A DNA stretch of 64,000 bases from an uncultured cyanobacterium (GCA_963793425.1 CAWCAG010000009.1:896001-960000), one strand, 5' to 3'. Positions 15,001 to 24,832 are shown, numbered from the stretch's first letter. Made by a program: the numbers.

Positions 15001-18000
15001 CAATCGATGTGATTAAATCTGCCACGGCTTTAGGTGGTTATCAAGCTTTGCCTCCTAAGCAGCTTTTTGAGGTGGAATATTGGGATCTTGAACAAGCAAA
15101 ATTAAGGAAAGGGGGAAAAGCGCCCCTATTCACTGGGGAGATTGCTTTAGTTACGGGGGCAGCTTCTGGTATTGGTAAAGCTTGTGTTGATTCTCTGTTG
15201 AAGCGAGGGGCGGCGGTAATCGGTTTGGATATTAATGATCAGGTTACCTCTATTTGGGACTGTCCTGATTTTTATGGTCTTACCTGTGATGTTACCAATC
15301 CTCAAGCTGCTATTAAAGCCTTAGAACAAGCAGTGAGAAAGTTTGGTGGCTTAGATATGCTGATCCTCAATGCTGGTATTTTTCCTGGAGGTTGTGGAAT
15401 CGCCGATTTAACTGATGCCCAATGGCGTAAAGTTATGGCAGTTAATCTGGATGCTAATTTAGCCCTGATGCGGGAATCTTACCCTTTCCTTAAACTTGCT
15501 CCCCAAGGGGGCAGGGTAGTGGTAGTTGGCTCCAAAAATGTCCCGGCCCCGGCCCCGGTGCAGCAGCTTACTCGGCCTCCAAAGCGGCTCTCAACCAACT
15601 AGCAAGGGTTGCTGCTTTGGAATGGGGCAAAGACAAAATCCGTATTAACAGCCTCCATCCTAACGCTGTCTTTGATACAGGTATTTGGACAGAAGAAGTA
15701 TTAAAAGATCGCGCTCAACATTACGGCTTAACCGTAGAAGAATATAAAAAGAATAATATCTTACAAGTGGAAGTGACGAGCCATGATGTTGCTGAATTAG
15801 CTGCGGAAATGTGTGGCCCCTCTTCGCCAAAACCACTGCTGCCCAGCTTCCTGTTGATGGGGGTAATGAACGAGTGATTTAGGGAAAAAGCAGCAATACG
15901 ATCCTCACAAGTTGCGGTATAACCCTGGTAGGATAGTTTCAACAAACAGAAGAAACCCGATCAGTAAAACCTATATGAATAGAGTTGAGGGAGCAAATAT
16001 CGGACTCAAAAATAATTCTGCTCCTTTCCCTGGGAAAATGTGGAACAAAGTTGTTGCCTTATTAGCTGTTGCCAATCTCCTTTTAGTCTTGTTTAATCTC
16101 AGCTACATTCCCCTTCGGGATATTTATCTACGACAGATTCCTGCTTTGGTAGCTTTATATGATCCGATTAAAAGTATTGAAGCCCATCCCGATACTAGCC
16201 GCTATTTAAAAACAGTAGATGCTTTGACTCAGCAACTTCCTAAAGTAGGATTGCAAGCCCCAGCTACCAGAGAACTTTTTAATTTCTTGCGGCAACAAAG
16301 CACTGAGATGTTAGCAGAGAATCCCTTTTCTGTTGCTAATAAGTTTGGCACTTTTGCTAAATTGAAACGACGCATTGAACATCATCTTGATACTCAATCA
16401 GCAAAAGAAGCTTTTAATCAATTTTGGAGTCAGGACTATTTTACTAAAGTAAGCCCCCCAGAAGCATTAGGCTTTTTTGATAGCAAAATTCGCCCTTTAT
16501 TAGAAGTTAATTATTATCGTTCTGTGGATGAAAATGGTCAATTTATTGATGATTTTTGGCGCATTGATCTTTATTTTATGGTCTTTTTTGGGCTGGAATT
16601 TTTGTTAAGAAGTTTCTGGAAGTCTCGGCAAAGAGAGGATTTAACCTGGGGAGATGCCCTCTTACGCAGTTGGTACGATGGATTGATGTTACTTCCTACC
16701 TGGCGTTGGTTAAGAACTGTTCCGGTGGCAGTACGCTTGCATAAATCTGGTTTAATTAACTTAGAACGTATCCTGGCCCAGGTTACCCATGAACCCGCTG
16801 CTTACCTCGCTGATCGGGTGGGGATGTTTTTGATGGTACGCTTGATTAATCAAACTCAGGAAGCTGTGGAAACTGGGGAAGCGGCGAAGATGTTACTTCA
16901 GCCAGGGGATTATATTCAAGTTAGCGATGTAGATAAGGTTGATGCCATTCTAGATCGTATCTTGCAAATAGCTATTTATAAAGCCGTTCCTCAAGTGCAG
17001 CCAGAGTTAGAGTCTTTGTTGCATCATAGCTTGAAGGGAGCCTTCAAAAGCTCAGATTTTTACCAAGCTTTGCAACAAGTACCGGGGCTTTCTGCCCTGC
17101 CCCAAGAAGCTACTGAACAGTTAGCAGATTATTTATCCCAAGCTGCCTATGAGGTTTTGGCTACTTCCTACGGAGATGTGCAAGGAAGAGAGTTATTTGA
17201 GAATTTGACAGCAAATTTTAAACAAGTGTTGCGGCGAGAGTTACAGGATGAAAAAACTCAAGCAGAACTTCAATCTTTGTTAGCTGATTTACTTGAAGAA
17301 GTCAAATTAAATTACATTCAAGGTGCTAAGAAACAAGATCCAGAAGCAACTTTAGCTGAAGCAGAAAAGTTGCGGAATCGCCTAGAGAAGGAAATTTAAG
17401 GAAGTTTAAAAGTCTTGCTGGGTTGCATTTGCTTTTTTCTCCCTTGACATGATATTATGTATATGGTGGAAAAGGTGCGCTCTTGGAAGCAATTTTTCAA
17501 CAAGAATTTAATTAACTCCGCAGCAACTTATATTTTGCTAGGCAATCTTAGACAGAATCCGGTTACTAAAGTACCTTGATAAAATTGACCGAATAAAGTT
17601 CTCAAACCCTTCTTTCTGCTCCCTACTCCCTGCTCCCTGCTCCCTGCTCCCTACCCTAACAGGTAACTCACACCACTCAACACCGATTTGTATCAGATTG
17701 AGCCAAAATTAAGTTGAGAATATTTAATTCTTTAGAGTTCATCAAGTATTTATCACTAAAGGATTTATTTCTCATTTCTTTGAGGCTATAACTACGAAAG
17801 ACTAGGAAAGGAAATTTTTCGTATTTATGACCAATAGGAACAATTTGGGCAATAGGAAAGATGGATTTTAAATAGAATTCGAGAAGTTGACGAAATCTTT
17901 GATCTTCTGGTTCAATTTCTTTATTTTGGAAATAAACTGAAAAGACATCACCAACTAAGAAAATGAATAACGGGACAGCATAATATTGATCAAGATATTG

Positions 18001-24000: not shown

Positions 24001-24832
24001 CTTAAGGAAAGGATAATCTTCATCTTCATGTTTAAGAGTAAGTCGTTGCTTAGATAGTCCGGGATAGTCTTTATTAAAGTCATAACTCAAACTAATTTGA
24101 TTACCAACCTTACCTTGAAACTGATTTAAAGCAGTCCATAATTCTCTAACAAAATCTTCTCTAAATTGGTAATTCCTCTCTTGTAACCAAGAATCTAAAC
24201 ACTTTTCCAAACAAGCTCTAATTTCTCTGTTACAACTCACAAAACTGTCTTTTGAAGACTCAGTTAAATGGGTGGTTGCCACCTTCGCCCCGCGCCAATT
24301 ACTTCCCAAAGGCATCTCTATACCCCCTTGAGTTGCTAAACTATAAGCAATCTCATCTACATCAATAAATAGCTGCTTACCATTGCTAGAAATTCTCCAA
24401 AGATTAGTAGTTTGTAGACGTTCTAAAATAGCTTTTAGTAGACTGCTGTAATCAACACGAACTAAACTGCGATCGCCTTCCCTGATCGTATTCACCATAA
24501 TCCTAACATCTTCAAACTAATGGTCTATTTCCATCTTCCCACACTTCCACTAGCCACTAACTATTAGCTATTAGCAAAAACCAGAATCTAGGCTGTACCT
24601 TACTAGACTAAGAATTGCTATATTTTATGCAGGGAATTGTGTTTGTAAGCAAAAGTTTACAAATTTTGGGCTGATCAATAACTATTTAGTAACTAACTAA
24701 GTAGGTAAACCCCTCCTAAATCACTACTTGACAAAAGTGTCTTTCTGTGAAGTAAATTACAACTATTTTCCTAAATCCCTTGAATTACTAACAATTCCAG
24801 CCTTCAACATTCATCCCCACAAAAAGTATTAG

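Follow-up and report, generated by a model that had tools for sequence, protein, structure and literature searches.

Two adjacent genes on the minus strand of the window, the 64,000-nucleotide stretch of DNA from an uncultured cyanobacterium that was analyzed here, probably encode a hitherto undescribed guide-directed system against foreign DNA. The first specifies a protein, P0001, that is predicted from its fold to belong to the Argonaute/PIWI superfamily, and the second a motor protein of the SF2 type, P0002, in which the ATPase motifs are intact. Argonautes carry the guide in RNA interference and in bacterial systems that act against plasmids. On balance, we lean toward the view that the two genes constitute one operon and that their products form a nucleic acid surveillance module that is directed by a guide against foreign DNA.

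The P0001 gene (21454-24498, minus strand, 1014 aa, ATG start) is the upstream member of the pair and is separated by an intergenic spacer of 102 nt (21352..21453, minus strand) from the P0002 gene (17677-21351, minus strand, 1224 aa, ATG start); a search of the spacer for a minus-strand terminator-like site found none. The initial annotation had described two large co-directional genes of these lengths beside groEL, and the open reading frames are as it stated. The groEL gene (24857-26575; Cpn60_TCP1 in Pfam, 1.2e-79) is divergent from that of P0001, and the control region between the two (24499..24856, no strand assigned) contains a promoter-like site (24649-24622, minus strand), whose sole basis is its match to the consensus, and a perfect inverted repeat (24829-24855). 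It should be noted that shuffled sequence yields promoter- and terminator-like matches at least as often as this region does.

The low G+C content that the initial annotation gave for the pair is confirmed, being 33.7% as compared with 41.1% in the remainder of the window; windowed values are 0.32-0.37 at 17.0-25.0 kb and 0.40-0.45 in the flanks. Two observations weaken the case for recent transfer that might be built on it: the G+C content of the pair is below that of its flanks in 53 of the 53 loci with enough flanking sequence (means of 0.368 and 0.439, respectively), and a genome of the same genus has the pair at the identical place beside groEL. The dip thus characterizes the gene family as a whole and does not mark a recent arrival in this genome, and an explanation by recent transfer into this genome was rejected.

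The structure of P0001 is represented by a single AF2 model built from 30 fairly close sequences. In this model, the first 545 or so residues form an N-terminal lobe ahead of a MID-like domain (approximately residues 556-717; 22348..22833, minus strand), which is followed by a PIWI-like domain with an RNase H fold (approximately residues 727-1007; 21478..22320, minus strand), so that the arrangement of the Argonaute/PIWI superfamily, a Rossmann-like MID domain and then PIWI, is present. Structure searches align the MID domain of hAgo2 (7c6b_A) to residues 560-714 of the model and that of QDE-2 (2xdy_A) to residues 566-712, chains consisting of MID-PIWI alone to residues 547/548-1004/1007, and Endonuclease V to residues 727-1006. 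Two structure-search engines are concordant on the likeness, and in a structure scan independent of Foldseek the first 26 matches are all members of the superfamily, with other folds appearing after them. The pLDDT is only 47-66 at about residues 810-960, being low over half of the PIWI region, and the structural alignments have rmsd values of 4.3-6.5 Å over about 330 of the 1014 residues. The initial annotation had assigned P0001 to no known family, which is correct with respect to sequence models but not in the wide sense, given the superfamily indicated by the predicted fold. Its further claim, that the system is built on a wholly new protein, is not supported, because P0001 belongs, by predicted fold, to this superfamily; systems of the Argonaute-like plus helicase kind are already known (DdmDE, ApsAB, and the pPIWI-RE triad).

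Conservation was assessed by column counts over 39 family members with identities of 20-67%, and the positions assigned to catalysis and to the pocket come from secondary structure and visual inspection rather than from superposition. The residues that are kept cluster in the MID domain and in the C-terminal part of the PIWI-like domain, and, placed in this manner, they sit where Argonaute binds the 5' end of its guide. In the MID domain, Q688 and S706 are present in all 39 members and G689, N702, and Y708 in 37, whereas the column of K713 contains 29 lysines and 6 arginines. The family pattern, (R18/H7/Y3)669-x3-K673 (31/39)...Q688-G689...K713, in which P0001 itself departs from the majority by having A673 instead of K673, resembles the Y-x3-K...Q...K motif of long-B pAgos and the Y-x3-K...QG...K motif of ApsB, as these are given in PMC11096173. 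In the PIWI-like domain, D740 (36 of 39, at the end of strand 1), H955, E960 (39 of 39), K969, and D979 (24 Asp and 5 Glu of 39, near the C terminus) are conserved, and the column of R958 has 28 arginines and 6 lysines. Residues 811-812 at the end of strand 4 (K811-S812 in P0001) are Lys, Gln, Arg, or His followed by Ala, Ser, or Thr, and are never acidic in the 39 members. The DEDX catalytic tetrad distinguishes active slicers rather than defining the superfamily, and D740 and D979 are candidates for two of its positions. With no acidic residue at the end of RNase H strand 4, where one would be expected, P0001 itself probably would not slice its target, and its PIWI domain may be inactive.

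Searches with sequence models provide no link between P0001 and the superfamily. Pfam gives Imm30 alone, at a sub-threshold level, and the Piwi and pPIWI_RE families, the latter including PF13032, PF18157, and PF13111 (RNaseH_pPIWI_RE, MID_pPIWI_RE, and pPIWI_RE_X), match none of 30 members even at E ≤ 10. Scans of this genome with PF02171 and PF13032 returned no matches; the former matches 17 of 201 cyanobacterial genomes and the latter 7 of 201 genomes elsewhere. Neither protein was matched in PADLOC at E ≤ 1, NCBIfam gave no credible match to the pair, PDB sequence searches with the pair returned nothing relevant, and a PDB search with the 39-member P0001 profile was empty. The pair is thus absent from the family and defense libraries searched (Pfam, NCBIfam, and PADLOC), and full-text literature searches, whose coverage does not extend to subscription journals, found no description of this family. 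In hhalign comparisons, P0001 (whole, C-terminal half, or PIWI part) aligned with 5 canonical pPIWI-RE and 13 classical cyanobacterial pAgo proteins at probabilities of about 1% or less, but the positive control of pPIWI-RE against pAgo likewise gave just 0.2%, so that these thin profiles are powerless and have no bearing either way. Global-mode hhalign did not recover a match noted by eye between PIWI motifs of P0001 and a cyanobacterial pAgo ("LTLxH," and "IIGD" against "YYAD"), and no weight is placed on this match.

By language-model features, pPIWI-RE is the nearest named family to P0001: 21 pPIWI_RE clusters, with a score of 0.95 and 211 of 256 features, rank directly after the clusters of the family itself. 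The initial annotation had found the same lead but could not confirm it; the predicted fold now bears it out, with sequence methods still showing no link. This result also favors a different reading, that P0001 is a highly divergent pPIWI-RE in a rearranged locus, in which the separate REase gene has disappeared or become part of the helicase gene and DinG has been replaced. Canonical cyanobacterial pPIWI-RE open frames have a length similar to P0001 (982-1105 aa), a large non-PAZ N-terminal region and an adjacent helicase are common to both (PMC3702460), and the N-terminal domain of P0002 could supply the missing nuclease. However, the pair is without a separate REase gene, its helicase is not of the DinG type, the gene order is reversed, and the pPIWI-RE Pfam models match 0 of 30 members. 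R958 and E960, or R737 and E738, are candidate equivalents of the invariant R and E that lie across the beta-sheet extension of pPIWI-RE, and a short helix (residues 781-784) after strand 3 in the model of P0001 might correspond to the extra helix that pPIWI-RE has behind its first three strands. We regard a divergent pPIWI-RE as a possibility, and a doubtful one.

The association of the two genes is well conserved, as had been proposed. A P0002-type helicase is encoded directly downstream of the P0001 gene in 74 of 79 fetched loci, starting 0-514 nt away (median 30), and the genes of the pair overlap by 4 nt in some other loci. The pairing is retained in a distant plasmid pair with identities of 29.8 and 32%, and in three loci of a second clade, in which the stop and start codons overlap and the helicase is 24% identical. 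A paralogous second copy exists, as do variants in which a single helicase gene is flanked by two genes for Argonaute-like proteins. The counts reported earlier for its patchy spread (61 of 401 genomes and 30 of 156 genera) rise with a more diverse profile to 69 of 401 sampled Cyanobacteriota genomes and 36 of 156 genera; an earlier figure of 340 family representatives was not reproduced, single-sequence phmmer giving 252 at E ≤ 1e-3. Distant homologs occur in one named genus of Chloroflexota and one of Bacillota, a single case each.

Within the phylum, the distribution is uneven. One cyanobacterial family has the pair in 24 of 25 sampled genomes, at one syntenic site among pheT, a small YciI-like ORF, and a peroxiredoxin-like ORF, and another has it in 22 of 45; in 30-31 Microcoleus-type loci the pair is at a fixed site between housekeeping genes, and in 17 Nostocales-type loci it adjoins a purQ-like gene (the YciI-like, peroxiredoxin-like, and purQ-like identities are from a reading of translations). 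No recurrent defense genes are present around the family loci, the other recurrent neighbors being housekeeping genes. Near-universal occurrence (24 of 25) at one syntenic housekeeping site is unusual for a defense system.

These fixed sites, the high frequencies in the two families, the position beside groEL that is common to two species of one genus, and the lack of recurring defense genes nearby would suit a role in housekeeping genome maintenance in large polyploid filamentous cyanobacteria, such as chromosome or plasmid copy resolution, repair, or the control of natural transformation; functions of this kind have been proposed for some true pAgos, and roles in cell division and transformation are reported for cyanobacterial pAgos. 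Nevertheless, the family was not found in 332 of the 401 sampled genomes of the phylum, some copies are broken by internal stops or are in pieces (L072; G071, G208, and G152), and six conjugative cyanobacterial plasmids carry the pair, which lies beside integrases in both of the plasmid loci inspected. The second copy, the second clade, the fast divergence (two congeneric species share 72% identity in P0001 and 88% in the adjoining groEL DNA), and the persistently low G+C content are also more appropriate to accessory genes, and we consider a housekeeping role unlikely. A role in defense is inferred from analogy with known systems, the presence on conjugative plasmids next to integrases, the patchy spread, and the fast divergence; a comparison of the family with 50,697 phage records gave no match.

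P0002 consists of an N-terminal domain (residues 1-375; 20227..21351, minus strand), an SF2 helicase/translocase core (approximately residues 385-943; 18523..20199, minus strand), and a C-terminal domain of mixed alpha/beta structure (residues 944-1224; 17677..18522, minus strand, including the stop codon). Pfam gives Helicase_C at residues 760-868, with the value previously reported (2.4e-6), and AAA_22 at residues 415-455, and a search against PDB sequences found generic P-loop and Helicase_C fragments only, at E ≥ 0.026. Two RecA-like lobes with Walker A (residues 419-426), Walker B (DE), motif III, and motif VI are all present, and the Walker A, DE, DAS, and Q..RGRG motifs are invariant across both clades. 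The core is without the cysteine-rich iron-binding segment, and DinG is not a preferred structural match. Among the structure matches of the core, Snf2-type dsDNA translocases are within 1 Z unit of Brr2, which constitutes a tie. A related question is whether the target might be RNA, the pair then acting in RNA-guided or RNA-targeting surveillance with an RNA helicase as its motor. The tie of Snf2-type double-stranded DNA translocases with Brr2 argues against this, as do the analogues DdmDE and ApsAB, which act on plasmid DNA. The sequence of the pair itself favors neither RNA nor DNA, and an RNA target seems distinctly improbable.

The N-terminal domain of P0002 is modeled with a pLDDT of mostly 80-94. 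In 17 sequences from both clades, G11, F14, E15, E108, D165, S184, D249, K250, K254, Q257, A258, and Y261 are invariant and position 182 is Asp or Glu. D165 precedes a strand of residues 166-172, D/E182-x-S184 ends a strand of residues 175-184, and Q257-x3-Y261 is in a helix of residues 250-271. The PD-(D/E)xK nucleases of the RecB/Cas4 type have an alpha-beta-beta-beta-alpha-beta core with D...(D/E)xK followed by a QxxxY helix. In P0002, a serine is at the usual position of the (D/E)xK lysine and the QxxxY is 75 residues off. The invariant acidic, lysine, and QxxxY residues suggest that the domain is a candidate metal-dependent nuclease. No homolog of the domain was found outside the helicase family, 62 shorter relatives being apparent fragments or truncated forms of the same family as judged from their identities and names; a PDB profile search was empty, the Atlas had no usable named match, and hhalign against 20 PDDEXK_1 proteins gave a probability of 0.4%. 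In the C-terminal domain, for which the pLDDT is 37-83, the invariants across both clades are almost solely hydrophobic residues and proline, with no counterpart to the acidic and lysine residues that mark the nucleases of DdmD and ApsA.

In the guide-directed mechanism that we favor, P0001 would grip the 5' end of a short nucleic acid guide within a pocket formed by R669, Q688-G689, N702, S706, Y708, and K713 of the MID domain and H955, R958, E960, and K969 of the PIWI domain. Pairing with foreign DNA, from a plasmid or a phage, would cause P0001 to recruit or release P0002, presumably through direct contact, and unwinding and damage of the target by the ATP-driven motor, possibly with the N-terminal domain acting as a nuclease, would result in loss of the foreign replicon. 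A complex prediction with residues 545-1014 of P0001 and the N-terminal domain of P0002 gave a score of 0.00, which has no bearing on binding. It is conceivable, as a more speculative extension to which we attach little weight, that the family is a deep Argonaute branch, invisible to sequence methods and comprising at least two clades, that has co-evolved with a private helicase carrying a new nuclease or sensor domain; in lineages where it is near-universal and syntenic it might perform a resident task, e.g. the policing of the number or integrity of chromosome and plasmid copies, and the variants with two Argonaute-like genes might employ two guide classes with one motor.

That the Argonaute likeness is an artifact of modeling and the fold of P0001 unrelated is very improbable, since, although the dependence on a single AF2 model from fairly close sequences, its low pLDDT in half of the PIWI region, the high rmsd and limited extent of the alignments, and the failure of sequence methods are in accord with such an error, two engines are concordant, the Foldseek-independent scan gave consecutive superfamily members, isolated MID domains and Endonuclease V match the expected sub-ranges, a structure-free language-model method indicates the same superfamily, and the conserved residues are located at the guide 5'-end site.

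The Argonaute-plus-helicase modules DdmDE and ApsAB have recently been recognized as major barriers to plasmids and were discovered through structure rather than sequence. The pair would add a further type, one that occurs widely among filamentous cyanobacteria that form blooms or mats and is carried on their conjugative plasmids, and, if the present reading is correct, could be part of the reason why many cyanobacteria resist transformation or the upkeep of plasmids. It would also represent a new programmable scaffold for nucleic acid binding and would help to close the evolutionary gaps that separate classical pAgos, pPIWI-RE, and Med13 within the PIWI superfamily. More generally, a predicted fold can place families that profile methods label as having no known family.

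Among the known systems, the catalytically inactive pAgos with a partner effector, which comprise the short pAgo systems SPARTA, SPARSA, and SPARDA and long-B pAgos with a nuclease, have TIR, SIR2, or nuclease-APAZ proteins as partners and act by abortive infection. The present pair differs in having an ATP-driven motor as the partner and an Argonaute-like protein of the long rather than the short form. It resembles the three-gene pPIWI-RE system of REase, DinG helicase, and pPIWI-RE, which is patchily distributed in bacteria and in which a helicase gene accompanies that of a PIWI-superfamily member about 1000 aa in length whose N-terminal region is not a PAZ domain; restriction of invading DNA was the role predicted for that system (Burroughs, Iyer and Aravind 2013; PMC3702460).

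DdmDE of Vibrio cholerae, on which the mechanism proposed above for the pair is modeled, is similar in having two genes, for an Argonaute-fold protein without the full DEDX tetrad, which P0001 also seems to lack, and for an SF2 motor of about 1200 aa. According to 10.1101/2024.05.10.593530, the helicase-nuclease DdmD is guided by DdmE, which is a long-C pAgo lacking DEDX, and plasmids are eliminated through DNA-guided recruitment of this motor; the ATPase lysine of DdmD is K55, and its PD-(D/E)xK domain is C-terminal (about residues 1059-1102). In contrast, the Walker A motif of P0002 is located behind a 375-residue N-terminal domain and its C-terminal domain is without a conserved catalytic set, and the residues of DdmE quoted in the same text reach 678, as compared with the 1014 residues of P0001. 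DdmD and DdmE chains were absent from the results of the PDB sequence and profile searches. PADLOC 2.0.0, which contains DdmDE models, also had no match.

ApsAB of Escherichia coli ST38, for which PMC11096173 describes experimental antiplasmid activity, the elimination of plasmids, and BLAST searches that matched neither protein to annotated families, also combines an Argonaute-like protein, with QG in its MID motif, and an SF2 helicase-nuclease. In that source, however, ApsB (about 750 aa) is without the PIWI RNase H fold that is present in the model of P0001, apsA precedes apsB whereas here the order is reversed, with the Argonaute-like gene first, and ApsA has its Walker A at residues 218-222 and its nuclease at residues 1420-1435 at the C terminus; the sizes of the proteins and the order of domains also differ from those of the pair. 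Supplementary Data 7 and 8 of PMC11096173 contain ApsAB-like pairs from cyanobacteria in which one protein has about 1300-1317 aa, with a P-loop near the N terminus, and the other about 770 aa, and the Trichormus plasmid pair of the present family (WP_011316674 and WP_011316675) is absent from the supplementary files searched. This separation of the pair from ApsAB is made from the published description. We read the pair as a fourth type of Argonaute-plus-helicase module, similar in its action to DdmDE, ApsAB, and the pPIWI-RE triad and a member of none of them.

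The first gene of the pair encodes P0001 (1014 aa; ORF at 21454-24498 of the window, minus strand), a protein with a predicted Argonaute/PIWI fold, and the second, which is co-directional and lies 102 nt downstream, encodes the SF2 helicase P0002 (1224 aa; 17677-21351, minus strand). In 1-kb windows the G+C content over the pair is 0.32-0.37, against 0.40-0.45 on both flanks; it is 0.337 for the whole pair and 0.411 for the remainder of the window. The initial annotation had described the ORFs, low G+C and family matches of the pair correctly. The groEL gene lies upstream in divergent orientation, and two nearby ORFs lack any credible match in Pfam or NCBIfam: one of 495 aa (15912-17399, plus strand), downstream and convergent, and one of 398 aa (27274-28470, plus strand). 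Immediately 5' of the groEL start, two 9-bp arms set 9 nt apart form a perfect inverted repeat (TTAGCACTC-N9-GAGTGCTAA, 24829-24855). The site scan classed it as terminator-like on the minus strand, and it fits the CIRCE operator bound by HrcA. The window also contains a very long ORF (2608 aa, 5315-13141, plus strand) of high G+C (0.49-0.51 versus about 0.41), and the GC skew is strongly positive (0.20-0.34) over 10-13 kb.

A scan limited to one genome for each species yielded 192 relatives that were confirmed, and 79 of their loci were fetched. In 74 of these, the two genes share a strand and the helicase gene follows the Argonaute-like gene at a distance of 0-514 nt (median 30). The exceptions are a locus at a contig end (L028), one in which no helicase was found within 10 kb downstream (L023), one with the helicase upstream (L037), and two in which it lies 9.0 kb (L025) or 5.7 kb (L039) downstream, beyond inserted genes. 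In the latter two, which are of the Nostocales type, the large genes inserted between the partners (L025:13257-16769 and L039:13296-18710) look like sensor-kinase-like ORFs and a 1256-aa kinase-like protein with an NTPase and repeats. Clustering of all ORFs of the 79 loci gave no third conserved partner; the recurrent neighbors are lineage-specific housekeeping genes, which from our reading of the translations appear to be pheT, a small YciI-like protein and a peroxiredoxin in the Microcoleus type and purQ in the Nostocales type. Five loci (L045, L047, L049, L058 and L063) have a second full-length Argonaute-like gene 3' of the helicase, as in L047 (10001-13003, 13045-16659 and 16671-19664), where the two copies are 46% identical and therefore stem from an old duplication, with one helicase serving both. 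The Nostoc plasmid pNPM2 carries a distant pair (29.8 and 32% identity) in unchanged order, and in a second clade the Argonaute-like ORF (about 1056-1062 aa, without Pfam matches) runs into the start of the helicase gene, whose product (about 1280-1299 aa) is 24% identical to P0002. This layout is identical in the three loci inspected (L104:4067-11114, L105:4094-11121 and L106:3617-10626), and the second clade co-occurs with the first in some genomes, such as G312, G318 and G212. P0206, a metagenomic ORF of 2028 aa from a G+C-rich organism, holds both proteins in one open frame, through either a genuine fusion or a frameshift in the assembly. The parallel divergence and fixed adjacency of the two genes are strong evidence that they form one functional unit.

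A profile of 39 members has matches in 69 of the 401 Cyanobacteriota genomes sampled and in 36 of 156 genera, among them 24 of 25 genomes of one family and 22 of 45 of another; these genomes are kin rather than independent samples. Distant named members occur in Thermosporothrix (Chloroflexota) and Gottfriedia (Bacillota), and the Atlas contains a look-alike cluster of 312 members, mostly from Bacillota. The near-universal, syntenic occurrence in one family would suit a housekeeping role instead of defense, an explanation that we regard as unlikely. The pair is also present on six cyanobacterial plasmids for which conjugation is predicted, with integrase genes nearby on both of the two inspected, and some copies are fragmented or contain internal stop codons (L072, G071, G208 and G152). 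A search of phage records for the pair gave no match. The copy in Crocosphaera watsonii WH 8501 (L072:7128-15502) is decayed: an interruption of about 1.9 kb divides the Argonaute-like gene, and the matches to the helicase fall into four pieces in different frames. Compared with the flanking DNA, the pair has the lower G+C in 53 of 53 loci, and a genome of the same genus has the pair at the identical site beside groEL; the shared site and family-wide G+C dip together indicate that the pair is not a recent arrival here. Between these two genomes the protein is 72% identical and the groEL DNA 88% identical, and the pair therefore evolves fast. Another genome of the same family has a copy at 63% identity with one in-frame TAA (G431:C27:32710-35751, locus L140), and its groEL matches lie on other contigs.

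The family matches of P0002 in Pfam, PADLOC and NCBIfam comprise Helicase_C (760-868) and P-loop fragments at about 400-455, and nothing more. Action on RNA would be compatible with the fold of this motor, and we consider it improbable. Residues 1-375 make up a confidently modeled domain (pLDDT 80-94 for the most part), which a homolog search confines to this helicase family. Retained within it in both clades are Gly11, Phe14, Glu15, Glu108, Asp165, Asp/Glu182-x-Ser184, Asp249-Lys250, Lys254 and Gln257-Ala258-x2-Tyr261. The order of these residues, an acid in the first helix, an Asp before one strand, an Asp/Glu ending the next and then a QxxxY helix, resembles the motif of RecB/Cas4-type PD-(D/E)xK nucleases, with a serine in place of the motif lysine. 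None of the searches run supports this assignment, and from the residue pattern the domain is a candidate nuclease at slightly short of an even chance. In the C-terminal 280 residues almost only hydrophobic positions are kept in both clades, a pattern that sets this domain apart from the nucleases at the C-termini of DdmD and ApsA.

For P0001, Pfam, PADLOC and NCBIfam gave nothing credible, the Piwi and all pPIWI_RE Pfam models matched none of 30 family members even at E ≤ 10, and the 39-member profile had no match among PDB sequences. Whole-genome scans with PF02171 and PF13032, which match 17 and 7 of 201 cyanobacterial genomes, respectively, found nothing in this genome. Comparisons by hhalign with five canonical pPIWI-RE proteins and 13 classical cyanobacterial pAgos found no relation, but they carry no weight because a control comparison of pPIWI-RE with pAgo likewise came out negative. 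An AlphaFold2 model based on an alignment of 30 homologs at 33-79% identity (mean pLDDT 81.2, pTM 0.72) has 67 Foldseek matches in the PDB at E ≤ 1e-3; all of those listed are Argonaute, PIWI or short-pAgo chains, the best being TtdAgo (8wd8_A, 4.3e-6). That this fold is a modeling artifact is very improbable: in a language-model feature comparison, which uses no structure, 21 clusters with all three pPIWI_RE Pfam domains rank directly after the family's own (score 0.95).

In a set of 39 members at 20-67% identity, the fully or almost fully conserved polar residues are Lys342 in the N lobe; Gln688-Gly689, Asn702, Ser706, Tyr708 and Lys713 (29 Lys and 6 Arg) in MID; Ser736, Asp740 and Gly754-Glu755 in the first strands of PIWI; and His955, Arg958 (28 Arg and 6 Lys), Glu960, Lys969, Pro972-Tyr973 and Asp979 (24 Asp and 5 Glu) in its C-terminal part. 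The MID block of the family, (R/H/Y)669-x3-K673...S-Q688-G689...K713, in which position 673 is alanine in P0001 and its nearest relatives, resembles the motifs of long-B pAgos (Y-x3-K...Q...K) and ApsB (Y-x3-K...QG...K) as quoted in PMC11096173. At the end of RNase H-fold strand 4 (residues 805-810 of the model), the position expected for the second catalytic aspartate from secondary structure rather than superposition, the family has Lys, Gln, Arg or His followed by Ala, Ser or Thr, and we think for this reason that the PIWI domain probably does not slice.

According to 10.1101/2024.05.10.593530, DdmE, which is without DEDX, binds short DNAs with a 5' phosphate as guides and loads DdmD, a helicase-nuclease, onto plasmid DNA; plasmid loss by ApsAB, according to PMC11096173, requires three lysines, those of the MID motif, Walker A and the nuclease. 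By analogy with these systems we favor, with modest confidence, a role of P0001 and P0002 in guide-directed surveillance of foreign nucleic acid, in which P0001 would carry a guide, recognize foreign nucleic acid, and contact P0002 to hand it over, and P0002 would unwind the target using ATP and perhaps cut it through its N-terminal domain. The analysis shows the folds, motifs, pairing and distribution, while the guide, the non-slicing PIWI domain, the nuclease, the contact between the two proteins and a role in defense are inferred.

A search of the full-text literature found no published description of this family. It differs from the pPIWI-RE triad in that none of the pPIWI-RE Pfam models matches it, no REase gene is present at the pair, P0002 is not of the DinG type and the gene order is reversed. 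No sequence relation to DdmD or DdmE was found, and the domain order of P0002 differs. From ApsAB the pair is set apart by protein sizes and gene order; PMC11096173 says that ApsB lacks the RNase H-fold PIWI present in the P0001 model, and the cyanobacterial ApsAB-like pairs in the supplementary files searched are other proteins. The main question of classification is whether the pair is a far-diverged sister of pPIWI-RE, a placement that we hold to be possible but doubtful, or a separate branch. We propose that the pair may act in the way of DdmDE and ApsAB, and as predicted for the pPIWI-RE triad, yet by the features compared above it belongs to none of them.
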